Positions 32,068-61,900 of a DNA stretch of 64,000 bases are shown piece by piece. Location: the NCBI GenBank assembly GCA_963796995.1, contig CAWCNR010000003.1:92171-156170 (forward strand), written 5' to 3'. The stretch comes from an uncultured Bacteroidota bacterium (GTDB taxonomy: Bacteria; Bacteroidota; Bacteroidia; Chitinophagales; Chitinophagaceae). Position 1 is the stretch's first letter; the number at the start of each line of letters is the position of its first letter. A program made the translations under genes and the position numbers. Under the pieces are notes generated by a model that was given only the letters and a program-made list of their open reading frames with translations, was not told the DNA's origin and made no database searches.

Positions 32068-32736
32068 TCAGGCATCCGCAATATTTTTAGCCCGTCTTTT
32101 ATAAGAAGCGAAAATCTTATCAATAGCAATCAATAAAAAGCCAATTGCAATGAATACAATTGTTAATCCCAGGCAATTCAATATTACTTTTTGGTAACCT
32201 GATTTATTAAGATCAAGAAAAGGATAAGGATAGAAATCTTCAATGTGTCCGCGAATCATTGCGTAGAACAAATAAGCAACGGGGTATAGCAACCACGCAA
32301 AACAATTTTTCCATTTTAATGAACCCTTCTCAATAAAGAATATCCAGTAAACAATAAACAAAACCGGCACGGCAACATGCAACAATTCATCAGCCAATAG
32401 TTGAAGGCCGCTTGGTTGCCACAACCGTCGCAGTATGATATTATAAACAAGGCCAACTATTAAAATGTACAGAGTAATAGCTGTTGCCGAAGACGGCTTT
32501 GATAAAAATCTTCCTGCCGGAGAACTTGGTTTTATTAAAACAACTGTAAGACTAATGGCCACCATAAGGTTAGTCAATATTGTGAAGAAAAGAAAAAATC
32601 TTCCTACCGCTTGTAAAGGGGTCATCCCGTTAGCTGGTGTGTTGTCAACCAAAATATACAGTTGAAGAATCAACGCAAACCAACAGGTGATTGAGATGAT
32701 CAATCTGAAAAAAACAAGTAATTTTTGTTTACTCAA
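32068..32736 (-). CDS. polytopic membrane protein (Pr6Pr / FAR-17a-AIG1-like)
   Basis: 222 aa, about 6 TM helices. The family assignment is tentative. Confidence 0.45.
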   Translation of the reverse strand: MSKQKLLVFFRLIISITCWFALILQLYILVDNTPANGMTPLQAVGRFFLFFTILTNLMVAISLTVVLIKPSSPAGRFLSKPSSATAITLYILIVGLVYNIILRRLWQPSGLQLLADELLHVAVPVLFIVYWIFFIEKGSLKWKNCFAWLLYPVAYLFYAMIRGHIEDFYPYPFLDLNKSGYQKVILNCLGLTIVFIAIGFLLIAIDKIFASYKRRAKNIADA

Positions 32737-32824
32737 AGCATATGATTTGTTATAGAAAGATAAGAACTTAACAGTTTAAAGAAGTTTTGAATTCCAAAAG
32801 CGGTATTCACTTTATTTTTGAATC

Positions 32825-34951
32825 ATGAAACAACTATTCACCCTGCTTGCGTTAATTCCATCTATCGCATTTTCTCAAACTTTTACGCCGCAGGAAATAA
32901 AAAGGTGTAAAGAAGAAGCACAGAGAGTAACAATAATCAGGGACAATTGGGGCGTACCGCACATTTACGGCAAAACAGATGCTGATGCAGTGTTTGGATT
33001 ATTATATTCTCAATGTGAAGAAAACTTTCAGAAAGTGGAGGAAAATAATCTTGAAATGCTGGGCAGACTTTCTGAAATAGGAAAAGCTGGATTGTATGAT
33101 GATCTGCAAATGCGGTTGATCTATGACAGCAGTGCTGCCATCGCAGATTATAAAAGATGCACTCTATGGTTTAGAAAATTATTGGATGCTGCTGCAGACG
33201 GTGTAAATTATTTTCTTTACAAACATCCTGAAGTAAAGCCTGAAGTTCTGAAATACTTTGAGCCGTGGTTTGCTTTGATGCGCACAAACGGGAGCATTTC
33301 CGCTACACAAACAGGAGGCCTGACTTTACAGGACATGAAAAATCTTTACAAAACCAATGATGCTTCCACATCTTTTACTAAAAAAGAAATACCTGTAGAA
33401 ACAGGATCAAATGGTTTTGCAGTCGCACCATCAAAAACACTGTCCGGGCATGCAATTATTTACATTAACCCGCATGTAACGTTTTATTACCGAACCGAAG
33501 TACAAATGGCAAGCGATGAAGGATTGAACGCATACGGCGGTGTAACGTGGGGAACGTTTTTTGTTTTCCAGGGCTTTAATGAGCATTGCGGATGGATGCA
33601 TACTACAAGTTATGCAGATGTAGCTGATCTCTATAAAGAAAAAGTAGAAAAAAGAGGCGACACCTTATTTTACTTGTACGATGGGAAATGGCTTCCAGTA
33701 AAAACTAAAAAGATCACGATTGACTATAAGCAAGGGAATGCAATTAAGAGGGAAAGTTTTACTGTGTACGGCACTGGCCACGGGCCGGTAATGGGAAGCA
33801 GAAACGGGGATTGGTTAAGCCTTAAAGAAAATAATCGTTCGCTAACTGCTTTAATGCAATCATGGCTGCGTACGAAAACAAAAGGATTTGAAGATTTCAA
33901 AAAAGTAATGGATATGAGGTCGAACAGTTCTGACAATACTGTTTTTGCGGATGACCAGGGAAACATTGCCTACTGGCACGGTAACTTTATTCCGAAACGT
34001 GATGAAAAATATGACTGGACACAACCGGTTGATGGAACTACGTCTGCTACCGAATGGAAGAGTCTCCATACTTTAGATGAAATGGTTCATGTATATAATC
34101 CTTCAACAGGTTGGATCGAGAATTGCAATTCCACACCATTTACCGTTTCAGGAAGCGCCAGTCCAAAAAAAGAAAATTATCCTTCGTATATGGCTCCGGA
34201 TGCTGAAAACTTTCGTGCGGTAAACGCAGAACGTTTATTAAGTAATGCCAAAGAACTAACGATTGATAGAATGATAAAAGAGATCGGTTACAGTCATTAT
34301 CTCTCTGCATTTGAAATTTTACTGCCCCCACTCTTTTCAGCCTATGATGAATTGTCTTCTGCTGATTCTCTAAAACAAATTTTATCAGAACCGGTCTCCT
34401 TATTAAAAGCATGGGACAAAAATTCTTCTGATACTTCGGTAGCAACGACATTGGCAATTGAATGGGCAACAAGGGCGATGAGAAATTCTTCATCAACAGA
34501 AAACCTGCCTGCCGGCAAGGCAGGATTAAACTTGCTTTTTGAAACAATGAAAGATTTGAAACAAAGATTTGGTTTATGGAAAATTGCATGGGGCGAAATA
34601 AATCGTTACCAGCGTGTGGCGAATGGAGAAAACTTTGATGATAATAAACCAAGTTTGCCATCAGGACTTGCTTCGTCTGCTTATGGCTCTATACCTTCTT
34701 TCGTTGCACGACGTTTCCCGGGTACTAATAAACGTTATGGATTTTCAGGAAACAGTTTTATTGCCTGTGTTGAATTTGGGAAAAAAATAACTGCAAAAAC
34801 AATTGAAACAGGAGGCCAATCATTTGATCCTTCATCAAAACATTTTACCGACCAGGCACAAATGTTTCTCGATGGAAATTTTAAAGATGTGCTTTTCTAC
34901 AAAGAAGATGTGATGAAGCATGTTGAGAGAAAATATCATCCGGGAGAGTGA
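32825..34951 (+). CDS. penicillin acylase family Ntn-hydrolase (possible acyl-homoserine-lactone acylase)
   Basis: 708 aa with signal peptide, ..IRDNWGVPHIYG.., and a putative nucleophile at ..TGSNGFAV... Confidence 0.85.
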   Translation: MKQLFTLLALIPSIAFSQTFTPQEIKRCKEEAQRVTIIRDNWGVPHIYGKTDADAVFGLLYSQCEENFQKVEENNLEMLGRLSEIGKAGLYDDLQMRLIYDSSAAIADYKRCTLWFRKLLDAAADGVNYFLYKHPEVKPEVLKYFEPWFALMRTNGSISATQTGGLTLQDMKNLYKTNDASTSFTKKEIPVETGSNGFAVAPSKTLSGHAIIYINPHVTFYYRTEVQMASDEGLNAYGGVTWGTFFVFQGFNEHCGWMHTTSYADVADLYKEKVEKRGDTLFYLYDGKWLPVKTKKITIDYKQGNAIKRESFTVYGTGHGPVMGSRNGDWLSLKENNRSLTALMQSWLRTKTKGFEDFKKVMDMRSNSSDNTVFADDQGNIAYWHGNFIPKRDEKYDWTQPVDGTTSATEWKSLHTLDEMVHVYNPSTGWIENCNSTPFTVSGSASPKKENYPSYMAPDAENFRAVNAERLLSNAKELTIDRMIKEIGYSHYLSAFEILLPPLFSAYDELSSADSLKQILSEPVSLLKAWDKNSSDTSVATTLAIEWATRAMRNSSSTENLPAGKAGLNLLFETMKDLKQRFGLWKIAWGEINRYQRVANGENFDDNKPSLPSGLASSAYGSIPSFVARRFPGTNKRYGFSGNSFIACVEFGKKITAKTIETGGQSFDPSSKHFTDQAQMFLDGNFKDVLFYKEDVMKHVERKYHPGE

Positions 34952-35125
34952 TTTGTAGTCAACTTTTTTCAGGACGAGACATTACAGCAGTTAAAACACG
35001 GCTTGCGTCAGCCTGCATTTTGGCAATACCCCTGTTGTACGTTCGCCCTTCGTCTTGGTAATTTGAATTGGAAGTCTGTGTCTACCGTGGCAGGGTGTGT
35101 CCCGGAAGCGCTGGAACAAGGCAGG

Positions 35126-35178
35126 CTCTTTTGCAAGGTTGGCTTTTGTGTGTCGGCTTTGTGCGCCTTGCAAATGTG
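35126..35178 (+). repeat. island-bounding direct repeat, copy A
   Basis: ctcttttgcaaggttggcttttgtgtgtcggctttgtgcgccttgcaaatgtg. About 48 of 53 positions are identical to 44208..44259. Contains the internal inverted repeat TTTGCAAGG..CCTTGCAAA. Confidence 0.8.
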
Positions 35179-35190
35179 CTTTCACCTGTG

Positions 35191-35490
35191 TTAAGCTTTC
35201 TGCTTTTTGTCAAAGAACAATGACGCAATTAAAGCTATTCCAACAATAACATCAACGATGTTCCATAATTGTCTGCCCAATGCAATTTTGATTAAGGGTT
35301 GGAATAAAATTGCTAGCGCAGCATATATAAATGCAAATGTCTTGTCATTTTTCTCAAAACTTTGATATGCAAGAAAAGCAAATCCTATTAATGCAGCGAA
35401 TCTTACCAACTGATAATAGCTGTACGGTAAATCAGCCAAACAAATAAAAAATAGAATTGCTAAAAATATTTTTGTGAGCTTAGTAATCAA
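35191..35490 (-). CDS. small integral membrane protein
   Basis: 99 aa, 3-4 TM helices. Last gene of the co-directional island array. Confidence 0.45.
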   Translation of the reverse strand: MITKLTKIFLAILFFICLADLPYSYYQLVRFAALIGFAFLAYQSFEKNDKTFAFIYAALAILFQPLIKIALGRQLWNIVDVIVGIALIASLFFDKKQKA

Positions 35491-35507
35491 GTGATTTTTT
35501 TATTCTT

Positions 35508-36374
35508 CTAAATAAAGTTTCTGTTATTTCTAAACGTTTCATATTTCTTTAGCTGTCGCTCAGATATAGAAGGCGGATTAGTCTTTATTGCTTCTTCCAA
35601 ATGTTTTTGCTTAATTTTTGTCCGTTCCTTCAAAGCATTTCGTGATGCTTCATTCACTATGAATTTAATATCGCTTGCCACATAAAGGTTTGTGAGTTCT
35701 GCCAACTTATCAATATCAATATCTTTCTCTGTTGGTCTGCCCAAAAGGTGTAGTTGAAACATTTCCTTTCTTGCTGTTAAGTCAGGCGGTGCTAAGTAAA
35801 TGACTTTATCCATTCTTCCGGTTCTTAAAATTGCAGGGTCAATCTTTTCCGGTCTGTTAGTCGCTGCAATAATGAAAATGCCATGTTGATGGCACTCTGT
35901 CATTTGAGCCAAAAACTCATTCACTTCTGACGCATAACTCTGGCTTAAATTTCCTTCTCTGTTGGGGAGTATTGCATCAACTTCATCAATGAAAATTATT
36001 GTTGGTGCTTTCTCTTTTGCTTCTGTAAAAAGTTTTGCAATTTTTTCCTGTGTTCCGTGAACATAAATGCTTGCAATATCAGAAGGTCTAAGTTCAACAT
36101 AATTGTAAGAAATTTCTTCGGCAAACTTTTGAGCAATAAAAGTTTTTCCGCAACCCGGCGGACCATAAAGTAACATTCCATTTGGAATAGAAACTTTATA
36201 TTGCTCGTAAAGTTCTTTATCGTTCAATGGAAGAATGATGTCTTGATAGAGTGTATCTTTCAATTCACTCATTCCGGCAATCAAATCAAAACCTTTTCCT
36301 CTCTCTTTTATTTTGAAAGTTGCTGAACGAACCTCCGCTTTTTGCTCAACTGATTTTCCATTTGAGCTAACCAT
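35508..36374 (-). CDS. AAA+ ATPase (classical CDC48/FtsH-type AAA module)
   Basis: Walker A GPPGCGKT, Walker B IIFIDEVD, second region of homology ..ATNRPEKIDPAILRTGRMD... The frame stays open 14 codons upstream of the ATG, as far as the IS terminus. Confidence 0.85.
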   Translation of the reverse strand: MVSSNGKSVEQKAEVRSATFKIKERGKGFDLIAGMSELKDTLYQDIILPLNDKELYEQYKVSIPNGMLLYGPPGCGKTFIAQKFAEEISYNYVELRPSDIASIYVHGTQEKIAKLFTEAKEKAPTIIFIDEVDAILPNREGNLSQSYASEVNEFLAQMTECHQHGIFIIAATNRPEKIDPAILRTGRMDKVIYLAPPDLTARKEMFQLHLLGRPTEKDIDIDKLAELTNLYVASDIKFIVNEASRNALKERTKIKQKHLEEAIKTNPPSISERQLKKYETFRNNRNFI

Positions 36375-36463
36375 TTCAATTTTCGGTTTGATTTCTTCTG
36401 TATTAGCCCCCTAAATGGCTGGACTAAATTTGAAATTAAATTTAGTCACTTAAATTTAGGATT

Positions 36464-36784
36464 ATGTCAAAGAAAAGAAGACAATTTTCTGTAGAGCAGA
36501 AACTGCAAATCATTCAGGAAGCCGACCAGGAAGGCGTCACTCAAACGCTTCGTAAACACAATCTTTCTCACAGTGTTTTTCTTCGATGGAAAAATCAGTT
36601 CAATAGTGGTGGTGCCGGGTCTTTAAAACCGCAGTACAATAAAATGGATCCAGAACTCAGGGCCTTGAAAGAAGAAAATGCCCGTCTCAAAAAGATCATT
36701 GGCAATCAGGCATTGGAACTTGAATTCAAAACCGAGCTTTTAAAAAAAAGCGATGCCTACGAACGGAAGCTGAAGGGCTTGTAA
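36464..36784 (+). CDS. IS3 transposase OrfA (HTH)
   Basis: MSKKRRQFSVEQKLQIIQEA.. with a leucine-zipper-like C-terminus. Confidence 0.85.
   Translation: MSKKRRQFSVEQKLQIIQEADQEGVTQTLRKHNLSHSVFLRWKNQFNSGGAGSLKPQYNKMDPELRALKEENARLKKIIGNQALELEFKTELLKKSDAYERKLKGL
36742..36749 (+). other. programmed -1 ribosomal frameshift slippery run (A8)
   Basis: TTTTAAAAAAAAG near the end of orfA. The -1 frame is open from here into orfB (..KKRCLRTEAEGLVRTFILKGISARLVLNWSGIG..). Confidence 0.65.
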
Positions 36785-36816
36785 GAACTTTTATTCTCAA
36801 GGGAATATCTGCAAGG

Positions 36817-37659
36817 TTGGTGCTAAACTGGTCGGGAATAGGAGCCAGTAGTTTTTATTATAAAAAGTCAGGAGGACATAAAGGAATAAAGCCAAGCACG
36901 CATAGTGTCAATAGTGATGGCGAGCTCTTTGAAAATACGGTTGTGGTAAAAGATATTGAAAAAACATTACACCAGGAGTTCTGTTGTTATGGCTATCGCA
37001 ACATGACGGGTGAACTGAAAGATCTTGGTTGGATCATCAATCACAAAAAGGTTTACCGGCTTATGAAAGAGCATAAACTTCTTTATGGAGGAAGAATCAG
37101 GCCCGAGCCTTTTAAGCGGAATTTTATTCGCTTTAGAACACCTGTTGCTACCCGGCCACTACAGTACTTGTCTATGGATATCAAATATGTTCATATCCAT
37201 GGCTCTGGTCGAAACGCGCTGCTGTTAACTGTTATGGATATTTATTCCAGAAAAGTACTGATCCATTTACTTCGAAACAGTATTAAAAAGGGCGATGTGC
37301 TGGTGATGCTGTCACTGATGTTACTGGAATACAAAGCTGAAGGCATGACGCTGAGAAATGATAACGGATCACAGTTTATTGCAAATGCAGTGAGACAATA
37401 TCTAAAAGAAAAAGGCATTTACCAGGAGTTTTCTCATGTTGCTACTCCTGAAGACAATGCCTACATCGAGGCCTTGCACTCGAATCTGCAGCGTGAAGTG
37501 ATTGACCGATTTGAATTTGATTCCGTTTATCACGCTCAAATGATCATCGATCGGTATTACAGATGGTACAATGAAAAAAGAAGACATGGATCACTTAATG
37601 GAAAAACTCCTCAAACCATCTGGAACCGCTATTTTAATCCTAACCCTTTTGAATACTAA
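36817..37659 (+). CDS. IS3 transposase OrfB (DDE/rve integrase core)
   Basis: ..YLSMDIKY.., ..NDNGSQF.., ..YNEKRRHGSLNGKTP... The frame is -1 relative to orfA. Confidence 0.85.
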   Translation: MVLNWSGIGASSFYYKKSGGHKGIKPSTHSVNSDGELFENTVVVKDIEKTLHQEFCCYGYRNMTGELKDLGWIINHKKVYRLMKEHKLLYGGRIRPEPFKRNFIRFRTPVATRPLQYLSMDIKYVHIHGSGRNALLLTVMDIYSRKVLIHLLRNSIKKGDVLVMLSLMLLEYKAEGMTLRNDNGSQFIANAVRQYLKEKGIYQEFSHVATPEDNAYIEALHSNLQREVIDRFEFDSVYHAQMIIDRYYRWYNEKRRHGSLNGKTPQTIWNRYFNPNPFEY

Positions 37660-37670
37660 AAACTACTAAA

Positions 37671-38595
37671 CTACCTTTGGAAAACTGTCCAGTTTATTGG
37701 GGGTTGATACACTTCTTTCACTGTATCGTTTAATGCAGTTAAAAATTCATCAGCAGTTTTATAGCGTTCCTCAATGTCTTTTGAAAGCGCTTTAAGAATT
37801 ACATAATCAAGATATGGAGTACAGGCATCATTATGCAATGATGGCTTTTGTATCTCCTTTCTCCTTGCAGTGATTACCATCGTTGTGATTTTCTCTGTGT
37901 CATCATCTGTTCCTTCAAAGTCATATTCCCAAGGATGCATTCCTGTTATCATCTTATATAAAATAATCGCTGATGAAAAAACATCGCTTGTCGGTAAGTA
38001 GGTTCCAAAAAAACACTCAGGAGCAAAATAGATGTAACGACCTGCTGCATTTGGCAATTTTGAAAGTTGGTCAATAAGATTGAGCCAAACCAAAATCAGA
38101 AAGCATTGCAATTGGCTTTTCTTTCTCGTAAGACAAAAGAATGTTGTCAGTGCTTATGTCTCTGTGAACTATTGGTTGTGGTTGCTCTTGAACAAACTTC
38201 AAACCTGTCAACAAATCATTTTGAATTGAAAGGGCAATTGGAATTGGTAGTTGGATTTTTCGTTTCAAGAATTGAGTAAGGGTTTCACCTGAAATAAAAC
38301 CCATTGTGATGAAAAAATATTTCTTGTCTTGTCTGATGAATGAGTTAGTTTCAAAAACTCTGACTATGTTGGGATGAGTTAGTTTTGAAAGAATCTTTGC
38401 TTCTCTTGTAACTGTACCAATGTCTGTCTTGCTTACATAATCTTCTTTGAAAACTTTCATAACCTGCACACCCAAATATTTGTGCTTAACACGATACACT
38501 TCACCAAATGCTCCTTGTCCTATGAAAAACTGAATTTCATAAGTGTCATTGATGTTTTCACCCTTTGATAAAATATGTTCCTTTAGTGATGGCAC
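37671..38595 (-). pseudogene. Hanks-type Ser/Thr protein kinase, frameshifted, with 3' end running into the IS
   Basis: ORF 38071..38595 has GQGAFGEV, VQVMK, HRDISTDNILL and DFGLA. ORF 37671..38111 continues in another frame with ..YFAPE... The last ~8 codons (INWTVFQR*) are encoded by the IS right terminus. Confidence 0.8.
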
Positions 38596-38607
38596 AAAAT
38601 AAAAATT

Positions 38608-38994
38608 TTAATATCCCAATCCTCCTTCAGGTTCTCTTGGCGGTGGTGTTCCTTCTGGTAATAGTGAAAATAGTTCACCGACAATTTGTTGAAGTTTTGC
38701 CTTTGATGGATTTGTTACAATATTTTGTTTCGCTTTATTCATGAGTTGGGTTGCTTTGCTTCGATTAGTCCATGCAGTTGTATCAAAATTATCATCCAAG
38801 TATATTATAGAACCAATAATATAACCTAACTGCTGAAAGTTAATTGAAAAAGCAAGAGAATAATAATTACTGATTAAATCTTTTGCTGCCTTTGTATTTT
38901 CATTCCTGACAACGACCTTCGCCTGCTCCTCCAATTGTGAAAGAGCTGAGGATGTTTTATTATCACCATATCTTGTGTTTACTGTTCTTGACAT
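38608..38994 (-). CDS. hypothetical protein
   Basis: 128 aa, helical, Pro/Gly-rich C-terminus (..EGTPPPREPEGGLGY). Lies 13 nt upstream of the kinase gene. Confidence 0.4.
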   Translation of the reverse strand: MSRTVNTRYGDNKTSSALSQLEEQAKVVVRNENTKAAKDLISNYYSLAFSINFQQLGYIIGSIIYLDDNFDTTAWTNRSKATQLMNKAKQNIVTNPSKAKLQQIVGELFSLLPEGTPPPREPEGGLGY

Positions 38995-39051
38995 ACTCTA
39001 AAGCATCTTCCATATTCTGGCTTCTGTTTTTGGAAATTCATTTTTGGATTG

Positions 39052-41129
39052 CTATGATTCTAATTCAATCATTACTTTTCGTAATTCTTCCATCACTTGT
39101 GTTCTCGTGTTTGGATTTCCTTTTCCGTTTTCAAATAATTCTTGAAGTTGCTGTATTTTTTCTTCTGCATTTTCAGAATCAATTGAAGAAAATTCTGCTT
39201 CAAGATTTTTTAAGAATGTATAAGCAGCTTTTATTTGTTTAGCCACTACAACTTCATCAATTGCATCTTGCTTGATGTCTGGAAATGCAATTGGTATTGT
39301 GTCGTTCAAATATGGAATATCAATTGACATAGAAACTCTCTTTAACGGTCAATTTCAATCGAAATTTCTATTTCACTGTTCTTTGGAAGAAAGCCTGAAA
39401 CATTATCCCCTGTGAGAGTGTGCTGGCAAACAAAATCTCCATAAAGTGCTCTTGAATTTGGTTTTCCTTGCCAAACTACAATATCAATTTTGTCATTGAT
39501 TTCACCGGTTCTAAGGTTTGTCAAAGGTTTTGAATTTGTTCTTTCCTTTTGCGGGAAGTGTTGTGTCCTTTTTTAGCCCATCTAATGGAATAAGAAGTTG
39601 TTTCCCTTTACCAAAGTTGAACGCTTCGATGCAAATGTCATAGGGTAAAGTTGGATTTGCAATTTGTATTGGAAGTATCTGAAAATAGGAATGTTCACAC
39701 TTCAAAATATTTCCTTGCTCATCAAATAATGTAACATTAAAACGGTTCACTTTTTTTTCTTCTAAAAGAACGTCAATTATTTCAGCATCGTCAACCACTT
39801 AAAATTTCCGCTTGACCAACCTTTATCGCTTCTATCCACTTGGCAAAATATTTTCTCCGGTAGTTTCCCCAGATAAGAAATGCGATTGATTTTTATTCCC
39901 AATTTCACTTCGAGTTCAGGAGATGATTCAGGATACTTCAACGAAACTTGAATTCATATCTGCTGCAACTCCTTCCATTAATTGGATTATTTCTTGTTGA
40001 TGCAAAAATAGCAGCTCCTTTTGCCACTACTGTCATAGGGTCAACGGAAGAATCAATCCTACATCCAAGTTGTTCTTTAAGCATTCGTCTTAAGGTTTGC
40101 GACTTGGTCGGTCCGCCTACAAGAATCAATGGATTTAGCTCACTTGCTTTTATGTTGCGACTTTCAATTACTTTTTTGGTTATATCAAATGCATTAATGA
40201 TAGTTTGGCTCTACAATCTTTTCAAATTATTCCAGAGTAGCCTTTGGATAGAAAATAAATTGTTTTCTTTATCATACTGAATTCCTATGTCCTCAAAACC
40301 ATAACTGGACACAACATCGTTAGAAGAAAGTTCAATCTTAATATCTTTTGCTAACCTTTTTAGAATTCAATAAGTAAATCAGTTCCTTTCCATTAAATAT
40401 CGGTCAATTTTATATTCCTGTTTTATTGCTGGTAAAAGAAGGTAGTCAACAATTGCGTAGTCAATATTTTTACCGCCAAGTTGATTATTACCATCTGTAG
40501 TTTAACTGTGATTATTTCCTCTAAACGTTCACTAATGCTGCATCAAATGTTCCCCCTCCAAAATCAAAAACCGTCCGGTCGCCATCAGTTTTATGCGTTG
40601 ACAATCCATACGCAATCGAAGCTGCAATAGGTTCTTGTAGCAACTTACAATATTTGAACCCTGCTAACTCGGCAGATTTCTGTGTTGCATCAATTTGATG
40701 TTGCTTAAACAGTGTAGGGACTTGAAAACAATGGAGTTGACTTTTGCATTTCTGAATAAAAACAATGTAAATTTTTCTAAAAGTTCCGAAGAAAATTCTT
40801 CTGGTGAAAAGGAGCGATTTGCATTTGAGCATTCATATTTGATAGTCGTTCCCATGTCTCGCTTGAATTCAATGAAAGTATTTCTGCTTTATGATTTTTG
40901 ATTTGCCTGAAAATCCTTGAATGCTTTTATAGCATCCGCACTTAACTGGTTGAATGCCTTTTGCCCGACAAAAAGAACTTGCTTCTTATTTATGTGAACA
41001 CATGATGGAGTAGTGTCCGTCTGTGTGGCTTCATCACTTTTGATAATGGTAATCTCACCATTGTCCATTTTTGCAATAGCTGAATTGGTGGTGCCTAAAT
41101 CAATACCATAGTCAATTTTTTGTACTCCA
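39052..41129 (-). pseudogene. non-canonical Hsp70 family ATPase, heavily disrupted
   Basis: Fragments in order on the minus strand:
- IDYGIDLGTTNSAIAKMDNG (phosphate-1)
- ..DATQKSAELAGFKYCKLLQEPIAASIAYGL, TVFDFGGGTFDAAL (phosphate-2)
- DGNNQLGGKNIDYAIVDY
- LILVGGPTKSQTLRRML..DPMTVVAKGAAIFA (adenosine motif)
- beta-sandwich SBD (..TTLPAKGKNKFKT.., ..IDIVVWQG.., ..EIEISIEID)
- helical lid (ORF 39052..39330)
At least ten frame breaks plus an in-frame TAA at 40889..40891. Confidence 0.8.
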
Positions 41130-41150
41130 TTCTTAAATATTTTAATTTGA

Positions 41151-42049
41151 ATTAGTTGCCTGTGCTTACTTCAATTTCAGCCATCTGAATCGCTTCGTGA
41201 TTAAAATTTATTTGCGGTTTAATCACCTTTGTTATTATTCTTTCGCCCGGATTCAAGTTGTCAGATGGAATGAATGTAGCTTTTACAGAAAGTCCATCAT
41301 TAAATTGTTTGTTTATCATGTCAACTATTTCGTATCCTCCTTGATTAAATTCTTCTTAATTTTTCCAGGTTTGATTAAAGGAATAAGAGATTTATCGTCC
41401 GTCTTAATGGAACTTATTCTTTGCCGCAATCTGATTAATTTCATACCCAACTTTCAAAGGTAATTTATGGTCTGATGTATTTGCAGTTGCTCCATTTGTT
41501 TTTCGTTCTTCTTTCAAAATGCTTAATTGAGTTTGCAATATTTCTACAAGTTTTGAATCAAGTTTGATTGCTTCGTTTTGCATTGCTTCATTCGTCTTTG
41601 CAATTTGTGAATCAAGATTTTTTGTACTTGATGAAAGCTTGTTTCGCAAAACGAAAAATGCAATCATACTCAACAAAGCAACTCCTAAGATGCCGATTAT
41701 CCAGTAAAGAGTTCTATTACTGATTGTCTGATTAATGTCCTGGATCTGATTTTGCGTTTGCTTGCTTGCAGTGGAGACATTGGTAACTGTGATGTGCAAT
41801 GAATCTGCAATCTGCTGAATGTTTGATTGAGCGACTGAAAGCTGCAAGGTCATACTATCAATATGTTTTTTCTGATTTGCATTTGATTGCTGCAAATCAG
41901 TGTTGCTTTTTTCAAGCGATTTTATTTTGCTTGTAAGTTTGGAAATCTCCGAATGAAATTCTGATTTTGTTATTATTGAATCTGTAGATTGTGCGAACAC
42001 AAAAGCACAAAGTCAAAACCAATAATATTGTGAATGAATATTTTTTCAT
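41151..42049 (-). pseudogene. membrane-anchored GrpE-like protein (candidate nucleotide exchange factor), three frameshifts
   Basis: ATG at 42049 gives the signal peptide MKKYSFTILLVLTLCFC. After a shift comes ORF 41404..42000 (coiled coil, TM helix LYWIIGILGVALLSMIAFFVL). The C-terminal ..GYEIVDMINKQFNDGLSVKATFIPSDNLNPGERIITKVIKPQINFNHEAIQMAEIEVS is reached after two more shifts. Confidence 0.5.
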
Positions 42050-42059
42050 TTATTATATT

Positions 42060-42986
42060 TTATGCGGAAGGTTTTGAAAATTGCCATCCTTCATTAAGCA
42101 TTTTGTTTAATGTAGGATAACTTCTTATTGTTGATTGGCTTGTGTCTTTAATGTTTGCTTTCGATGTTTTCTGACTTTTTAAAGCTTGTCCTACAATCCA
42201 TCCTATAATACCTCCAACAAGTAAACCTGCAAACCAGTACCCATCAGCTACTATACCAATAATTAATCCCACCACAGCAAAACCGATAAGAGCAAAAGTG
42301 GAGCTATCGGAGCTTTGGCTGTGTATTTTTTGGCATTCGCTGCATCTTGAAATGCTTACAGGAATATAAGAAAACTGAACTCTTCTTGGGAAATGACTTC
42401 GGTAGGTTTCCTTATAAATGGTTATTTCAAATTTGCTTGTTTCTTCTGGTGGATTTTTTTCGCAAAACCAACAGCTATAATAAGCTTTATTTTCAATGTA
42501 ATGCCTGCAAGTGTCTAAATTCTCTTTTGCTCTATCTTTTACCCGTTGAGTCGCTGCTATGCTTAATGCATATTCGTACTCTTGCAAATAATCCTCCTCA
42601 TTTCTGATAGCTTTGACATAATCAATTTCCCCATTTGCTGTTTTGCAAGTATTAAATTTTTCTATTCCACATTTTACAATTTCCAGAGAAAGCTTATCAG
42701 CAATCGTTTGATATTGGTAGTCTTCAGTGCCCAATATTTTTCTTAAATAATCAATATCTGCTTTTGTATTTTTCACCAAATCTTTCCCCGCAGTAGTAGC
42801 GTCTTTTGCTGAGGTTTTTCTTATAGTCTTTGATGATTCGATTTCCTTATCAATATTTTGAATTTGTTTTGCAACAAATTTATTAGTCAGGAATTGCCTT
42901 GCCTCAAGTGGGAAGTTTGCAAAAGAATTTATCAGTTCATTAATAGAAATTCCATCTTCTTGTTCAAAAAAAGGTTTACAAATCAA
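42060..42986 (-). CDS. hypothetical zinc-ribbon protein with C-terminal glycine-zipper TM helices
   Basis: 308 aa. Cys pairs CWFC and CSEC. C-terminus FALIGFAVVGLIIGIVADGYWFAGLLVGGIIGWIVG. Overlaps the upstream gene by 11 nt. Confidence 0.5.
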   Translation of the reverse strand: MICKPFFEQEDGISINELINSFANFPLEARQFLTNKFVAKQIQNIDKEIESSKTIRKTSAKDATTAGKDLVKNTKADIDYLRKILGTEDYQYQTIADKLSLEIVKCGIEKFNTCKTANGEIDYVKAIRNEEDYLQEYEYALSIAATQRVKDRAKENLDTCRHYIENKAYYSCWFCEKNPPEETSKFEITIYKETYRSHFPRRVQFSYIPVSISRCSECQKIHSQSSDSSTFALIGFAVVGLIIGIVADGYWFAGLLVGGIIGWIVGQALKSQKTSKANIKDTSQSTIRSYPTLNKMLNEGWQFSKPSA

Positions 42987-44136
42987 GTATGTCGTTTATG
43001 TAAAAATGAAGCACCTTTTCTGAACTATAATTGTATCGCTCTCCTGCAATCATCTTTGAGTATTCATCCATGTTTCCATTTACGAAGATATTTTTAGCTA
43101 ATGCAATTCCTTTTTTGAAGTGGTTCAATTTAAAAGTTCCTTTTGATGAAACAAGCGAAAGCGCTAAATAAAGATTTGATAGATTTTTGATGTTGCTGAA
43201 AGTTTTAGAAGAGACATTTAATCCTTCACCATACGTTTCATCTTCTACAAGTTTGCAAAACCTGAAATTTCTGAAAGAGATTTTTTGATTGTTGCTTACT
43301 TTAAAGCCGAAGTAGCTACCAAAGAAGGGTTCACTTTGCACGGTTTCAACATGAGTGTCATTGATGTAGAATTCTAGTTCATTTTTAATTTTCTTAATCA
43401 TGATATGATTGCTTGACCATTTTCTAACAGCATCGCATTTCTGCCAAGCAATAATTTTATGGAATGCCCATTCCACATTTTTGCTGAAACAGTAATAGCC
43501 ATTTGCAGCTAAATCGAACATAAAATAACTCCCCTTCTCCCTTCCGAAAATTATTCCATACCCAATATTATCGACTCCGTCTCGCCATTCTGTATCAACC
43601 TCAATAGTCCAGTTTTCACTATAATTGAGGTCTGCATGTACAACCGGAATAGATGAACTTGTTTCTTTTTTTCTTTCAATAATATATTCCTCTTCATTTT
43701 TTTTGAGACAGTGATCTTCATCATCTTGTTCTGACCAACTGGAAGACTGCCTTATTAGGTTTTCATGCAAAACGACCTGCTTATAAACTTTATGTTTATT
43801 TGCCAATGCTGACTTTTCCCAAATGGCAATGGCTTTTTCTGTATTACCTTCTTTGAGAACTTCAAAAGCAATTTCATCTACACTATTATTTTTCCAAAAC
43901 CAAAATAATGAGTAAAGAAGTTTGCTCTCGGTTTGTTCGATTTGTTTTTTTGCTTCTTCAATAGCAAAAGGGGTTCTTTCAACTATTGGTAAAAATGGGA
44001 AATCGGTGTCAAGCGATTTTACTTTTCCCATTTCTGCATAAGTCGCTAGAGAATTGATTTGCCTTGCAATTTCTCTCTCGCTTGCAGTTATTGGTAAACC
44101 AAGTATTCGATATGGGTTGTTATTGATAAGGTTCAT
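42976..44136 (-). CDS. J-domain-like protein lacking an HPD motif, with beta-rich C-terminal domain
   Basis: N-terminus NPYRILGLPITASEREIARQINSLATYAE resembles J-domain helices I-II. There is no HPD tripeptide. ..LLYSLFWFW.. follows, and the C-terminal ~200 aa are beta-rich. Confidence 0.55.
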   Translation of the reverse strand: MNLINNNPYRILGLPITASEREIARQINSLATYAEMGKVKSLDTDFPFLPIVERTPFAIEEAKKQIEQTESKLLYSLFWFWKNNSVDEIAFEVLKEGNTEKAIAIWEKSALANKHKVYKQVVLHENLIRQSSSWSEQDDEDHCLKKNEEEYIIERKKETSSSIPVVHADLNYSENWTIEVDTEWRDGVDNIGYGIIFGREKGSYFMFDLAANGYYCFSKNVEWAFHKIIAWQKCDAVRKWSSNHIMIKKIKNELEFYINDTHVETVQSEPFFGSYFGFKVSNNQKISFRNFRFCKLVEDETYGEGLNVSSKTFSNIKNLSNLYLALSLVSSKGTFKLNHFKKGIALAKNIFVNGNMDEYSKMIAGERYNYSSEKVLHFYINDILDL

Positions 44137-44207
44137 ATTCTTAGAGTAAGTACTAAAATAGAAAATTATGGCTTTTCCGGAGATTAGGTGCGGTCGGCAA
44201 AATTTAG

Positions 44208-44259
44208 CTCTTTTGCAAGGTTAGCTTTTGTGTCGGGCTTTGTGTGCCTTGCAAATGTG
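44208..44259 (+). repeat. island-bounding direct repeat, copy B
   Basis: ctcttttgcaaggttagcttttgtgtcgggctttgtgtgccttgcaaatgtg. Same orientation as 35126..35178. Confidence 0.8.
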
Positions 44260-44261
44260 AT

Positions 44262-44303
44262 AAATGTGGGTTGGCTTTCAAAAAACAAAAAATGTGGGTT
44301 GGC
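44262..44303 (+). repeat. two exact copies of aaatgtgggttggc
   Basis: Copies at 44262..44275 and 44290..44303, 28 nt apart, immediately after repeat copy B, which itself ends in aaatgtg. Confidence 0.7.
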
Positions 44304-44511
44304 AAAAAAATAAAACTTCTTACGTTGGGTCGTGCTGTGGCTTGTATGTGTCATGTCGTTAGTTTGGTCTTTAAAGTTGTGTGCCTAATAGTGAGGTGTC
44401 GACATAGGCTTGCAGGTAACGTGTGTATACCGCTAATATACGCTACTAAAAATTTTAAAACAATCCTCTTAAAAAATATCATCATCGCAGGAGTGAGAGC
44501 ATTAAATTGTT

Positions 44512-45597
44512 TCACTCTTTTTTAAGTATCTGCATCAGACGGCGGTTAAGATAAAGTTTTTCTTTTCCTGCAATTTCACTTTTCAAAAAACCTTTGTCTT
44601 CAAGATTTTTTAAATAAGTTCCTGATGTTTTGATGTTACCAATTCCTGCTTTTTCCAAAAATGCCCGCTTGGTGTAAGGCAATCTGAATAATACTTCTAC
44701 CAGATCTTTCGAATAAACTTTAGGTAACTCTTTTTGAATTTGACCGCTCATTGTTTTTATCTCTTTTTCTATTTTTTCGATTCGGTTTCTTCCGTTCAGG
44801 GCAGTTACTTCTATCATGTCCAGCATGTAAAATATCCATTTCTCCCAGCTATTTTTTTCCGTTACATTTCTCAGGTTCAGGTAATACTCGTTTTTATTTT
44901 TAAGAATATAATTGCTTAAATACAACGCTGGCAAATCCATCAATCCCCATAATTTCAAATAGAGTAACAAAATTATTCTTCCTGTTCTTCCATTTCCGTC
45001 AAAGAAGGGATGTATTGCTTCAAACTGGTAATGTATCAGTGCCAATTTAATCAAATGATCAAAATCCCCACTCACATTCATAAATTCTTCCAAAGATTTT
45101 AATTTATCCCTGATAATGTTTTCTCCCGCTGGCGGTGTGTAAATTATCTTTCCTGTTACAGGATTTTTTAATTGCGTTCCGGGAATATTCCTGATGCCCG
45201 ACCTGTTTTCTTTTATTATTTGCATAATATCAATAAAAAGATTGGTAGATAAAACCGGTTTTTTATTTAATTGTTTTATTCCATACCATAAGGCATCTTT
45301 GTAGTGTATGACTTCTTTTGTGGCTGGGTCTTCGATTTTTTTATCTGTCACAGATGCTTTAAAAAGTTCATCCTGGGTAGTAATAATATTTTCGATGGCT
45401 GAACTTGCCTGTGCTTCCTGCAGATTTATCGTATCAATGAATAAATAGGGATTGGGTAAATTTTTTATCGCCCCTTTTAATTCTGACAATGCCCTGCTTG
45501 CTGAAATAACTTTTTTAAGAATTATCTTCGATTCTATATCAGCCTTAGGTGGCAAATCGGGCAACGCATTGTAAGGCTTTAGCGGATCATGCTTCAT
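44512..45597 (-). CDS. Fic family protein (AMPylase-type)
   Basis: Canonical Fic motif HPFFDGNGRTGR. ORF 44512..45693 trimmed to MKHDPLKPYNALPDLPP at 45597. Confidence 0.85.
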   Translation of the reverse strand: MKHDPLKPYNALPDLPPKADIESKIILKKVISASRALSELKGAIKNLPNPYLFIDTINLQEAQASSAIENIITTQDELFKASVTDKKIEDPATKEVIHYKDALWYGIKQLNKKPVLSTNLFIDIMQIIKENRSGIRNIPGTQLKNPVTGKIIYTPPAGENIIRDKLKSLEEFMNVSGDFDHLIKLALIHYQFEAIHPFFDGNGRTGRIILLLYLKLWGLMDLPALYLSNYILKNKNEYYLNLRNVTEKNSWEKWIFYMLDMIEVTALNGRNRIEKIEKEIKTMSGQIQKELPKVYSKDLVEVLFRLPYTKRAFLEKAGIGNIKTSGTYLKNLEDKGFLKSEIAGKEKLYLNRRLMQILKKE

Positions 45598-45611
45598 TTT
45601 TGGCTGTTTTG

Positions 45612-45710
45612 GAACGAGGGCAAAATTTACCTGCGTTTTTTGAACGAGGGCAAAAATACACAAAATTTGCCTTCGTTTTATTTTCGAGGGCAAAACTTAC
45701 CCTCGAAAAA
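45612..45710. repeat. cluster of three CGAGGGCAAAA-containing palindromic units
   Basis: Box 1 is 45615..45635 (degenerate). Box 2 is 45645..45675 (CGAGGGCAAA / TTTGCCTTCG). Box 3 is 45681..45709 (TTTTCGAGGG / CCCTCGAAAA, a perfect 10 bp stem). Confidence 0.7.
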
Positions 45711-45760
45711 ATATCTCTTTTTTTGAGGGAATGTTATATGTGGGATAAAGATCAGGATTC

Positions 45761-58988: not shown

Positions 58989-61900
58989 ATGAAATCCAAG
59001 CCAATTTCCTTTATAGGAACTATCCTGCTAATCCTCTTTTGCCACTACACCAGGGCTCAATCTATTGGTGCAAATGCTTCTGCCGTTTGGATTACTGACT
59101 GTAGCCAAAGTGCTTTTCTGAATACCACCGGTTCGATTGGTTCATCAAATTTGCCTTCAGACCTCGGTGTATATACACAAAATTCCGGTTCACTTATTCT
59201 CAGCGGCGCACAAGTCAATACTTTTAAAAATCCCGCTTCATCCAATGTTTGCTCTGTACGTATGTATTATAATATACATCTTCAAAGCAATCCTGCAGGT
59301 TCATTCACTTCCGTTGACCTTCCTTTGTTAGAAGGTTGTAATGGATCCAATCAATACCCTTCAGATGGAAGTGCATGCTCTTTGGGCGATCAGAGATGGC
59401 AAAACTTTTTTAGTGATATTGATCTGACTGCCCGTGCTCCCGGAAATTATGTACTTGAAATTTATTATGAAATATCCGGCTCCAATACCACCATCAATCT
59501 ATGCGATGAAACTGTAACACAAAACAACGGCGGAGCTAACTACAAAACAAACTTCACTATTCAGTCACCTAACCTGTCAAGTACAAATCCATCATCCTGT
59601 TTTGGCAATGAAGGATCGATCACAATTGGCGGACTGGCTCCCGGCGCTACTTACCTGTTAAGTTATACAGGCAATGGTGTTGCTATAGGCCCGGCTTCGT
59701 TTACCGCGAACGGTTCGGGACAAATTATTATCACAGGTTTGAAAAAGGGATTTTATTCTGACTTTGTTCTCCAGATCAATAACTGCGAAACGAATCTATT
59801 TACAGGAATTATTTTATCAGATCCGATATTCATTCCGAAATTTAATCCAATCCCTCCGTTTTGTGCTGGAACCCCGGCACCTGCGCTGCCAACCACATCA
59901 AACAACGGGATCGCAGGAACATGGAATCCGGCAACCATCGACAATCAAAATTCAGGAAGCTACACTTTTACTCCCAATGCAAATCAATGTGGAGCATCGG
60001 TTACAATTAATGTAACGGTAAATCCAAGGACCACGCCGACATTTAGTTTCGGCACGAGTTTATCAATTTGTGCAGGTGGAACTGTACCAACTTTGCCGCC
60101 AACATCGCAAAATGGAATACCCGGGACATGGAGTCCTTCCACAGTTGATAACCAGAATTCCGGAACCTATACATTTACACCCAATGCAGGACAGTGTGCA
60201 AATCCAACAACATTTAATGTAACAGTAACTCCTAATATTACACCAACATTTAGTTTTGGAACCAGTTTATCAATTTGTGCCGGGCAGGCTGTTCCCACGT
60301 TACCTGCTACTTCAGACAACGGAATCACCGGAAGCTGGAGTCCGTCAACGGTCGATGATCAAAATTCAGGAACTTATACTTTTACACCTGGTGCCGGGCA
60401 GTGTGCTACAGCTACTACATTTGATGTAACAGTTAATCCCAACATTACTCCCACATTCAACTTCGGAACAAGTCTATCTGTTTGTTCAGGTGCAAGTGTG
60501 CCTACTCTCCCAACAACATCTCAAAATGGAATAGCAGGCACATGGAGTCCTTCCACAGTTGATAATTTAGTTTCCGGTACCTATATATTTACACCTGATG
60601 CAGGACAGTGTGCAACTTCAACTTCTTTTGATGTAACCATCAATCCAAATATCACCCCAACATTTACTTTCGGAACCAATTTATCCATTTGTACCAATGG
60701 AGCTGTTCCTATTCTACCGACCACTTCAACAAATGGGATAACGGGACTCTGGACGCCTTCTGTTGTCGACAATCAAAATTCAAACAGTTATTTATTTGTG
60801 CCCACTGCCGGACAATGTGCAACCACTGCAACATTTAACGTGACGGTAAATCCAAACATCACTCCGACATTTAGTTTTGGAACCAGTCTTTCGATTTGCA
60901 ACGGAGGTACGGTACCGACTTTGCCGGCAACTTCATCCAACGGAATAATCGGAACGTGGAGTCCTTCTGCTGTTGACAATCAAAATTCGGGCACTTACAC
61001 ATTTACTCCAATGGGAGCACAGTGTGCAACAACTGCGACATTCGATGTGACGGTAAATCCCATTATCACTCCAACATTCAGCTTTGGATCTACTTTATCA
61101 ATTTGCGCAGGTGGCAGTGTGCCAACTTTGCCAATAACATCGCAAAATGGTATTACAGGTACTTGGAGTCCTTCAATCGTCGATAATCAAAATTCAAATA
61201 TTTACGAATTCACACCGGATGCCGGGCAGTGTGCAATGACCACATCTTTTTCGGTAACAGTTGCTCCCAATATTACTCCTGCATTTAGTTTTGGTACAAG
61301 TTTATCAATCTGTGCGGGAGGATCCGTACCCTCATCGCCTGCCACATCCGATAATGGAATTACAGGAACATGGAGTCCTTCTTCGATCGACAACCAGACT
61401 TCAGCCACATACACCTTTACTCCGGATGCAGGACAATGTGCAACCATCGCATCGTTAGCTGTGACTGTAAATCCAAACGTTACACCCACCTTTAGTTTTG
61501 GATCAACACTAACTATTTGCGCAGGTGGAACTGTACCGGCATTACCAACAACATCAGATAATGGTATAACAGGAACATGGAGTCCGGCAGCAGTTGACAA
61601 TCAAAATTCTGACACGTATACATTTAACCCTGATGCGGGGCAATGTGTTACAGGATCAATAACATTTTCCGTAACTGTTACTCCTAATGTAATACCCACA
61701 TTCACCCTCGGTGATACTTTAACCATTTGCAACGGTGCAACTGTTCCAGTATTACCGACAACATCAGATAATAGTTTAACCGGTACATGGAATCCGGCAA
61801 TTGTTAGTAATGCAACAAGTGGCACTTATATTTTTAACAGTAATTCGGTATCATGTGTTGTACCAGATACATTTACTGTAATTGTAAATCCCATCATTAA

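Follow-up and report, generated by a model that had tools for sequence, protein, structure and literature searches.

A mobile gene cassette encoding an Hsp70-like protein, predicted membrane-anchored partners and a kinase-AAA+ fusion, present as a decayed copy in an uncultured Bacteroidota bacterium

The stretch of DNA analysed here, 64,000 nucleotides of contig CAWCNR010000003.1 from an uncultured Bacteroidota bacterium (hereafter the window), carries, in decayed form, a mobile cassette that consists of four genes and an additional fifth. The ancestral unit is g1-g2-g3-g4, encoding respectively a J-like protein, a GrpE-like protein, an Hsp70-like protein and a fusion of a Ser/Thr kinase to an AAA+ ATPase, followed by a gene of the DUF6804 family; in the window an insertion sequence (IS) of the IS3 family has entered the unit. 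The cassette is widespread and horizontally mobile, and as a system it lies outside every described kind found. Because of the gene neighbourhoods in which it occurs, a role against phages or other mobile elements is favoured, and on this genomic context it is probably a defence system.

The open reading frames (ORFs) of the array span 35191-44136, where, the IS apart, all ORFs of any size are on the minus strand, and they are separated by gaps of only a few bases, as a preliminary description of the region, made from the sequence alone, had observed. The division of the array into eight genes in that description is, however, to be replaced by four ancestral genes, DUF6804 and the IS (Table 1). 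ORFs of 386 and 308 aa, which had been taken for separate proteins, are the two halves of g1, because single-protein homologues span both: most proteins homologous to the 386-aa ORF have 560-692 aa, undivided homologues of g1 have 659-692 aa, and the 308-aa ORF corresponds to residues 387-676 of a homologue of 676 aa (44% identity, E 1e-93). The last ~240 residues of intact Hsp70-like relatives (826-853 aa) tile onto 39342-38611, so that an ORF listed as an unknown gene of 128 aa, beside an Hsp70 of ~690 aa, is the C terminus of g3. The kinase and the AAA+ ATPase, also listed as two genes, are one gene cut in its linker by the IS, the fusion being 584-590 aa long in nine of the 11 other cassettes (604 aa in L025, and the kinase alone in L004). 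If the IS (36399-37711) and one CTTC are deleted, ...LNDTVKE runs on in frame into EIKPKIEMVSSNGK.... Membership of the IS3 family is indicated by the domains of orfA and orfB, by ends of the form TGTAT...ATACA and by a 4-bp target duplication, CTTC, at 36395-36398 and 37712-37715; the terminal inverted repeats are TGTATTAGCCCCC / TGTATCAACCCCC, and the ends of the element read TGTATTAGCCCCC... and ...GGGGGTTGATACA.

Table 1. Features of the cassette, of the island that carries it and of its insertion site (window coordinates unless a locus is named).
Feature	Coordinates	Strand	Basis or remarks
Inserted island, 10.8 kb: cassette, IS and Fic	34952..45760	.	Between convergent acylase and RND-pump genes; empty sites and low G+C
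Conserved non-coding 3' tail of cassette	34990..35185	-	71% identity over ~198 nt to L007 17659-17835
Hairpin repeat copy A	35125-35178	-	Start of the cassette's conserved non-coding 3' tail
DUF6804 small membrane protein, 99 aa, intact, fifth gene	35191..35490	-	PF20619 E 1.4e-32
g4 C-terminal half: AAA+ domain and part of linker, downstream of IS	35508..36398	-	PF00004 5e-37, AAA_lid_3
IS3-family element	36399..37711	+	orfA 36464-36784 (HTH_Tnp_1), orfB 36817-37659 (rve)
g4 N-terminal half: Hanks-type Ser/Thr kinase, 1-nt insertion ~38077	37712..38595	-	Pkinase
g3 Hsp70-like, heavily damaged pseudogene; includes the 128-aa ORF	38608..41131	-	tblastn tiling of intact homologues
g2 transmembrane GrpE-like, 4 indel events	41152..42049	-	ATG at 42049; 299 aa in relatives
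g1, split into 386 + 308 aa by 2-nt deletion ~42978	42060..44136	-	Comparison with homologues and L017
Hairpin repeat copy B	44207..44259	-	Between Fic 3' end and g1 start
Fic/SoFic-like gene	44512..45693	-	Fic_N, Fic and SoFic-like_C domains; G+C 34.5%
Alternative inserts at acylase/RND junction of relatives	L026 2217-9514; L044 1821-4069; L037 4516-5944

Searches with Pfam and NCBIfam profiles agree with the Hsp70, kinase and AAA identities first proposed. The kinase domain is found on two adjacent ORFs, 38071-38595 (1e-25) and 37671-38111 (4e-07), a classical AAA domain with its lid on ORF 35508-36374, and, in a translation of 39977-41119 joined by hand, the nucleotide-binding domain of an Hsp70. 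The 386-aa, 308-aa and coiled-coil ORFs match no family in Pfam, NCBIfam or PADLOC.

The same cassette order recurs in many unrelated genomes, a co-localisation that had been suggested as a check, and the loci span at least four phyla, with Bacteroidota, Legionella, Acidobacteriota and Desulfuromonadaceae among the carriers. The order g1-g2-g3-g4 is intact in metagenome-assembled genomes (MAGs) of Chryseobacterium (L005), Legionella (L006), Hanamia (L007, DATKQQ010000239.1), Prolixibacteraceae (L008), a member of the Bacteroidota (L023, CAWKTZ010000009.1) and a member of the Desulfuromonadaceae (L024), on a 275-kb JGI contig (L022) and on plasmid pHALHY02 of the cultured Haliscomenobacter hydrossis DSM 1100 (L025). 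It is also present in a Pyrinomonadaceae (Acidobacteriota) MAG, with g1 in two pieces (L014), and on two ENA/Logan contigs, one with g3 in two pieces (L001) and one with a g4 consisting of the kinase only (L004); contig L017, a close relative of the window, keeps the same gene order apart from the IS. On pHALHY02 the cassette occupies 8539-16064 (HALHY_RS33400-33420), and the RefSeq names used there are 'CFI-box-CTERM domain-containing protein', 'septum formation initiator', 'Hsp70 family protein', 'AAA family ATPase' and 'TerB family'. The slot after g4 is filled in L006, L007, L017 and L022 as in the window; its occupant, the fifth gene, is DUF6804 in L006, L007, L022 and the window itself, and L024 (14335-14892) and L025 (15224-15763) have TerB there.

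The full form of g1 is rare: in a set with one genome per species (185,579 species) there are 12 g1-like loci, of which six are shorter stand-alone paralogues. The g2 family comprises 275 clusters at 90% identity, and a library of 1.84 billion proteins contains 1246, 938 and 512 representative clusters of it at E ≤ 1e-3, 1e-10 and 1e-30, respectively. Full-length relatives of g3 at ~50% identity are numerous. Two arrangements near individual copies may be recorded here. In L024 a gene for a ClpB-like double-AAA+ protein lies two genes beyond the cassette. In L001 a second Hsp70 operon (4522-9478, minus strand) stands back-to-back with the cassette, in the order HSP70, DUF2167, a 388-aa protein, a canonical DnaJ-domain protein and DUF6804, so that DUF6804 is found with two accessory Hsp70 operons that are unrelated to each other.

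In the window the cassette lies within an insertion. In at least eight metagenome contigs of relatives the penicillin acylase gene and the convergent RND-pump gene on either side abut, with 5-90 nt between their stop codons (L027, L029, L030, L034, L035, L036, L039 and L058), and 34952-45760 is therefore inserted DNA. The identity of these contigs to the window is 75-79% for the acylase, 87-90% for an ABC protein and 82-92% for the RND pump. An empty site in relatives had been suggested as a check and does exist, but its edges are 34952 and 45760, not the limits 35126-44259 first assigned to the island. The Fic gene, which had been regarded as an unrelated flanking gene, is missing both at the empty sites and in the other cassettes, and belongs to the inserted DNA but not to the conserved cassette. 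A low G+C content, at first judged by eye, is borne out by windowed calculation, the island without the IS having 34.2% against 39.2 ± 1.6% outside, and the 13 lowest-G+C 2-kb windows of the 64-kb stretch are all inside the island. The acylase/RND junction is itself variable among relatives, where it may hold a LytTR response regulator with a tetratricopeptide-repeat (TPR) histidine kinase, a cyclase-TPR protein or a small unknown ORF (Table 1).

All four genes, g1 to g4, are damaged in the window. The view that the accessory proteins had stayed intact is incorrect, since g1 and g2 are both frameshifted, and the associated proposal that the NTP-using enzymes were selectively silenced fails, every gene being damaged whereas a 99.1%-identical contig carries the IS only. 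This contig, L017 (70.7 kb, ENA assembly ERZ25039539), has the same flanks, with 99.1% identity over 22 kb, and the same IS insertion, together with intact g1 (692 aa), g2 (299 aa) and g3 (826 aa). The remaining decay of the window is thus strain- or assembly-specific. The identical IS insertion is also present in L019 and L020 (ENA ERZ25039533 / ERZ25039539), short contigs that have frameshifts of their own when aligned to window 34950-44430. At least four haplotypes of the locus, with the same IS insertion and identical flanks, co-exist in one study, and the IS insertion is the sole inactivating event common to all of them. In L019 and L020 there are blocks in g1, g2 or g3 that are 25-35% divergent with an excess of third-position changes, which identifies them as imported alleles; since the divergent blocks differ among haplotypes, the locus is a mosaic of recombined alleles. 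The kinase half of the IS-interrupted copies may be functional, by analogy with the natural kinase-only form in L004. The order of events that would fit is insertion of the cassette and Fic between the acylase and RND genes, splitting of g4 by the IS3-family element and, in the present sequence, acquisition of the frameshifts and stops in g1, g2, g3 and the kinase.

Between the window and L017 there are no differences across the IS, AAA+, DUF6804 and right flank, and a handful in g1, whereas ~124 window-private differences are gathered in one 2.9-kb block, 38600-41450 (L017 13010-15900), with ~17 kb around it identical. Compared with L017, g3 has 90 substitutions, distributed 44/23/23 over the codon positions, with 14 synonymous versus 76 non-synonymous changes, seven new stops and 16 indel events. 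Coding-strand G is altered at 7.6%, against 2.4-3.0% for the other bases, and the spectrum of the block includes 17 G>T, 17 G>A and several deletions of G. Three origins remain for this private damage, i.e. import of a long-dead allele, local hypermutation, or a badly polished patch in a long-read assembly. Other candidate explanations were rejected. Recoding of stop codons is not consistent with stops that mix TAA, TAG and TGA, lie beside frameshifts and are absent from L017; a consensus mixture of haplotypes does not account for private differences that raise, rather than lower, the distance of the window to L019; and import of a functional divergent allele would leave a third-position excess, which the g3 block lacks, unlike the blocks in L019/L020 and at 32146-33400.

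It is a real possibility, although not the expected outcome, that the pseudogenisation of the window beyond the IS is a consensus-quality artefact of a long-read metagenome assembly containing several haplotypes; this would concern the condition of the window only. In L017, which comes from the same study, ~17 kb of flanks, IS and AAA+ are identical to the window, but g1, g2 and g3 are intact, and the concentration of the private differences in 38600-41450, without third-position excess, mostly non-synonymous, with 16 indel events and strand-specific loss of G, is as an artefact might appear. The short contigs L019 and L020 represent alternative versions of the locus, with frameshifts particular to each, and contig names of the form contig_NNNNN are, it would seem, typical of long-read assemblers. 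However, substitutions account for 85% of the differences, with G>T frequent among them, in contrast to the usual indel-dominated errors of long reads, and the perfect agreement of two independent assemblies outside the block speaks for high general accuracy. Dead genes also gather GC-to-AT-biased, position-blind changes, and the block could be a recombination import, as in the mosaic L019 and L020. The window and L017 also differ outside the cassette. A second block, at 32146-33400, has 64 differences, most of them transitions at intervals that are multiples of three, and resembles the outcome of ordinary recombination between alleles, and the acylase gene, intact in the window, is split in L017 (531 + 84 aa).

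With respect to the individual proteins, g3 is, as read from its sequence, an Hsp70 of 826-853 aa with an apparently complete set of catalytic ATPase motifs, what may be a modified β substrate-binding domain (SBDβ) and a long helical tail. An intact homologue matches Pfam HSP70 (PF00012) at 7.8e-68, over profile positions 3-373 of 599, and the g3 profile matches the nucleotide-binding domain (NBD) of DnaK at E 2e-68; the aligned NBD keeps GIDLGTTNS, the equivalents of K70 and of E171 (EP), and DxGGGTFD. A second, weak match aligns positions 521-644 of the g3 family profile to DnaK 381-494, in SBDβ. DnaK R167, N170 and T173, which are presumably the residues that contact the HPD loop of the J domain, align with E, Q and I in g3, a replacement that would fit a co-evolved partner without HPD.

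The intact g4 product can be described, on its motifs, as an active-looking Ser/Thr kinase joined in a fusion of ~585 aa to a putative AAA+ unfoldase of the Cdc48/VAT type. Intact fusions match Pkinase at 4.8e-40, and the Hanks kinase motifs (G-loop, VAIK Lys, αC Glu, HRD, DFG and APE) are kept in nine of 10 cassettes, L025 having HNE for HRD; the kinase pieces of the window keep the G-loop, Lys, HRD, DFG and APE motifs. In the window the AAA+ half matches PF00004 at 5e-37 and AAA_lid_3 at 5e-09, while its score against TIGR01243 CDC48 (3e-58) is below the full-length cut-off of that family. Its best relatives of solved structure are VAT and the D2 domain of p97/Cdc48 (1e-95), and the Walker A, Walker B, sensor and Arg-finger motifs are kept, as is the pore-loop aromatic residue, IYVHG being aligned on KWVG of VAT. 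Two copies of g4 differ individually. The H. hydrossis plasmid gene (L025 13398-15212), with HNE in place of the catalytic HRD, may encode a pseudokinase, and that of L004 (7646-8560) encodes a 304-aa kinase without an AAA+ domain.

The g1 protein, of ~690 aa, combines a J-like domain lacking HPD, a ConA/galectin-like β-sandwich, a helical domain, a Zn ribbon and two transmembrane helices. An AlphaFold model (50 sequences, pLDDT 90.8) has N-terminal helices at 8-11, 20-35, 56-67 and 69-76, then a β-sandwich at 118-299, which matches CBM66, galectins and the lectin-like domain of botulinum toxin (E 4e-7), and downstream of it a helical domain, two β-hairpins with CxxC pairs and two transmembrane helices. 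From the model, g1 is predicted to be a two-pass membrane protein with its J-like and ConA/galectin-like domains facing the cytoplasm. A fold search with full-length g1 was uninformative for the J domain, the matches being dominated by the β-sandwich. The proposal of a J-like domain without HPD stands as regards the motif, HPD being present in none of the 24 aligned g1 N termini, where the equivalent position is E-M/V-G (HMMER) or D-x-D (hhalign), while the likeness to J domains is weakly, if consistently, supported. J domains make up 12 of the 19 matches of the N-terminal profile in the Protein Data Bank (PDB), with a weak best E of 0.0065; comparison with a J-domain alignment gave E 3.5e-4 and a probability of 37% (hhalign); and Pfam DnaJ matched two of 24 members, at E 0.059. 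The model helices are compatible with the J topology, helices II and III being separated by a loop of unusual length. Paralogues of g1 of ~570 aa are present in Mucilaginibacter-type genomes (L002/L003, L009-L013), where they have the J-like N terminus, β-sandwich and helical domain, lack the Zn ribbon and transmembrane helices, and stand alone with no Hsp70 nearby; those in L002/L003 are situated between glycosyltransferase/polysaccharide-export genes and gap/pgk.

For g2, the AlphaFold model (49 sequences, pLDDT 82.6) consists of an N-terminal hydrophobic helix, a very long helix (28-185) that includes a transmembrane segment, a short helical bundle and a C-terminal β-domain. Comparison of this model with the PDB by Foldseek returned GrpE or GrpEL1 as all of the top 12 matches (E 1e-5 to 4e-3, probability 1.0), with alignments of 150-172 columns, the next unrelated fold being at E 0.24. 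The GrpE-like call of the preliminary description is thus upheld by fold, and sequence methods are weak or negative. The C-terminal 63 residues align to GrpE at E 8e-4 versus 0.012 for a reversed decoy (hhalign), there is no match of g2 to the GrpE families of Pfam and NCBIfam, and the g2 profile finds no GrpE among PDB sequences at E ≤ 10. On its model, g2 would be a GrpE-fold exchange factor with a helix that continues through the membrane to a periplasmic coiled coil.

That the cassette is an undescribed system, as first suggested, is consistent with the finding of no description of it in PADLOC, NCBIfam or the open-access full-text literature, a description in a subscription journal being possible; DUF6804 is likewise without a description in open-access full text. 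A scan with PADLOC returned nothing for g1, g3 and DUF6804, and for g2 a chance coiled-coil match alone. The main text of a language-model defence survey has no mention of Hsp70, DnaK, GrpE or chaperones. Reviews recognise three prokaryotic Hsp70 types, DnaK, HscA and HscC (PMC8215388), with the remaining 'DnaK derivates' described in 2026 as unexplored dark matter (PMC13580251); the cassette Hsp70 fits none of the three types in length, partners or linkage.

The cassette resembles DnaK-DnaJ-GrpE in that all three roles occur in one operon, the Hsp70 catalytic motifs being complete and its partners GrpE-fold and J-like. By contrast with DnaK, its Hsp70 has ~200 aa more, with extra sequence inserted in front of or inside SBDβ and a long helical tail that is novel; HPD is missing from the J-like domain, and the DnaK residues R167, N170 and T173 are replaced. 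Both co-chaperones appear to be integral membrane proteins, the GrpE-like one falling below the sequence thresholds of Pfam, NCBIfam and the PDB, and the whole is accessory, mobile and linked to a kinase-AAA+ gene. HscC of E. coli is likewise a private, non-housekeeping Hsp70. It is served only by co-encoded J-domain proteins that target clients (DjlC, probably DjlB), has a sporadic distribution resembling that of horizontally transferred genes, and is suggested to act on membrane-protein clients (PMC8215388). However, HscC is 550-580 aa long, needs no exchange factor and has J proteins that keep a working J domain (PMC8215388), whereas the cassette has an Hsp70 of 826-853 aa, a GrpE-like factor of its own, a J-like partner without HPD and a kinase(-AAA+) gene that always follows it.

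Hsp70-family proteins are also known from predicted NTP-dependent conflict operons, some with GrpE/J fusions or Ser/Thr kinases nearby, as in the GTPase-centric GAP1-N2 systems, with HSP70, GrpE and DnaJ fusions (PMC7159879), and in CoCoNuT systems, with the Hsp70-like CnuD proteins (PMC11090510); DnaK-like fusions to EACC1-protease modules are another Hsp70 conflict core (PMC12642450). GAP1-N2 and CoCoNuT, mainly from actinobacteria and firmicutes, are built on TRAFAC GTPases with tubulin or on McrB GTPases and lack g1/g2-type membrane proteins and a kinase-Cdc48-like fusion; the cassette, conversely, has no GTPase, vWA or McrBC gene, and the ATPase motifs that are degenerate in CnuD are complete in g3. 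Kinases or AAA+ proteins also occur in known defence systems, such as those with PD-T4-6 or Stk2-type kinases, BREX with PglW and Iet with IetA, but these systems have no Hsp70, GrpE-like or J-like protein and no kinase-AAA+ fusion. Cooperation of Hsp70 with an AAA+ disaggregase is known for DnaK and ClpB (PMC8215388), and the pairing of an Hsp70 cycle with a ring-forming AAA+ threading motor, whose pore-loop aromatic is kept in g4, recalls Hsp70-ClpB/Hsp104. The AAA+ part of g4 is, however, a single Cdc48/VAT-type domain fused to a kinase, rather than a two-ring protein with an M-domain, and it is operon linkage that suggests cooperation of g3 with g4.

The gene neighbourhoods that favour a role against phages or mobile elements are those of intact copies, several of which are flanked by known or candidate defence genes; a location in defence islands had been suggested as a point to check. 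The Hanamia copy (L007) has IetA/IetS directly upstream (3e-78, 8e-60) and a KAP/NACHT-like NTPase downstream, and the Prolixibacteraceae copy (L008) has PDC-S15 directly downstream (2e-64). Flanking genes encode a Type ISP restriction-modification system, PDC-M16A and a PADLOC TPR/cold-shock protein in L023, PDC-S40, HIRAN and NERD proteins in L024, SIR2 and BREX brxL/pglZ in L025, and a 2144-aa Cap4-nuclease/NACHT protein in L022; L014 and L001 have weaker defence-gene matches. Mobility is evident from the plasmid copy (pHALHY02), the empty sites in at least eight relatives and the low G+C, and genes of mobile-element or phage-like character lie close to the copies in L022 (Rep3/Toprim/HTH_17) and L001 (ArdC-N/AAA_24). 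Within PADLOC, models of PD-T4-6, mad6 and PglW match the kinase halves, and those of IetA and TRIP13 the AAA+ half, at the level of generic domains, the NCBIfam MAD6 and IteA scores being far below the family cut-offs. A dnaE2-imuB pair, encoding an error-prone polymerase, lies just upstream of the cassette region in two genomes (L007 27-3013, L022 2085-6217), which suggests a common integration hotspot.

How such a system might act can be proposed tentatively. The g1 and g2 proteins would keep a private Hsp70 at the inner membrane, on its cytoplasmic side, where g1 might recruit a foreign or membrane-proximal client, e.g. a phage protein, via its lectin-fold domain and make a non-canonical J-type contact with Hsp70. 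Transmembrane g2 could set the rate of the Hsp70 cycle by nucleotide exchange, possibly in response to envelope perturbation sensed via the periplasm and thus relaying envelope status. Hsp70 would then hand the client to, or license, the kinase-unfoldase g4, which, as the output, may phosphorylate targets and/or unfold them in an ATP-driven manner, so halting, or aborting, infection. This chaperone-cycle form of immunity is put forward with less assurance than the defensive role itself. If correct, it would be the first immune mechanism with an Hsp70/exchange-factor/J triad as sensor and switch, with the first transmembrane GrpE, and it would add protein remodelling and phosphorylation to mechanisms that employ nucleic-acid cleavage or depletion of NAD or nucleotides. 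For chaperone biology, one 'DnaK derivate' gains a full conserved context, with its own exchange factor, a non-HPD J-like adaptor and a kinase-unfoldase partner, and the cassette would show an Hsp70 working with a J-like partner that lacks HPD and with a membrane-spanning exchange factor. The presence of the cassette on pHALHY02 in the cultured H. hydrossis DSM 1100 makes the hypothesis directly testable.

Several observations weigh against a defensive chaperone cycle. The J-like assignment of g1 depends on weak scores and the catalytic HPD is missing; the linker and lid of g3 are unlike those of DnaK and unrecognisable by sequence, and a canonical chaperone cycle is not assured. There is no recognisable defence neighbour at L004, nor at L014 beyond a weak mad2-like match, and PADLOC-DB 2.0 has no model for g1, g2 or g3. 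A g2 search of 50,697 phage records found no homologue, and hence no sign of counter-use by phages. At the acylase/RND site, what relatives carry instead are regulatory genes, none of them for defence, and TerB or DUF6804 as fifth gene would also fit a role in envelope stress.

The last point leads to the alternative that the cassette is a specialised module for membrane proteostasis or envelope stress, comparable with HscC-DjlB/DjlC, in which the private Hsp70 maintains or extracts membrane proteins under metal, oxidative or envelope stress and the kinase-AAA+ protein is a quality-control unfoldase and regulator, with no immune role. Such a function would suit the membrane anchoring of both co-chaperones, the fifth gene, which is of the tellurite-resistance family TerB in L024 and L025 or encodes a small membrane protein elsewhere, and the ClpB-like gene two genes downstream in L024, and it has precedents in HscC, with its dedicated J-domain proteins and suggested membrane-protein clients, and in the DnaK-ClpB cooperation (both PMC8215388). 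It is nevertheless judged rather unlikely. The cassette is repeatedly found next to known or candidate defence genes in genomes that are not related, its distribution is patchy, with plasmid and island locations, and allelic mosaicism and loss at the locus have been rapid within one population; moreover, the Hsp70 is unlike HscC in size and in having an exchange factor. That the cassette serves its own mobile element, as a module for addiction, for exclusion or for competition between bacteria, with a toxic kinase-unfoldase held in check by the chaperone parts, is improbable, since, for all that the plasmid location, the adjoining Rep3/Toprim/HTH_17 or ArdC-N/AAA_24 genes, the toxin-like Fic gene co-inserted in the window and the frequent inactivation in the studied population might suggest it, most copies are chromosomal and have genes for defence, not for conjugation or partition, as neighbours, there is no conserved small gene resembling an antitoxin and no linkage to a secretion system was seen.

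The direct repeat after which the region was first described as a repeat-bounded island is real, with copies of ~54 nt at 35125-35178 and 44207-44259 that are 91-96% identical, but it does not bound the island. Both copies contain a hairpin, TTTGCAAGG...CCTTGCAAA, and the 23-nt core pattern has two matches in the window, against none expected. The copies stand at the 3' ends of two transcription units, those of Fic and of the cassette, and the latter copy belongs to the cassette, because it is also present in L007, where the counterpart of the 3' tail directly follows DUF6804; L022 has neither repeat nor tail. The copies do not resemble target-site duplications of the island, and a role of the repeat as a duplicated attachment site was rejected, one copy being cassette-borne in L007, the repeat being absent from L022, and the true island edge lying outside the repeat. 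A known RNA or a tRNA attachment site was likewise rejected. A search of the repeat and the 3' tail against Rfam returned nothing at E ≤ 1, there is no tRNA or tmRNA in the window, and the predicted folding is no more stable than that of shuffled sequences (z 0.45); the four sequences available were too few for analysis of covariation. The tail, of ~190 nt after DUF6804, is 71% identical between two genera, and its first 54 nt, i.e. the hairpin, are alone duplicated upstream of g1.

A scan for promoter and terminator consensus sequences gave counts at the level of shuffled sequence. Elsewhere in the window, on the plus strand, a 1218-aa ORF (58989-62645) contains ~11 tandem units of 207 nt (69 aa), 60-84% identical to one another, the repeats extending over 59875-62081.

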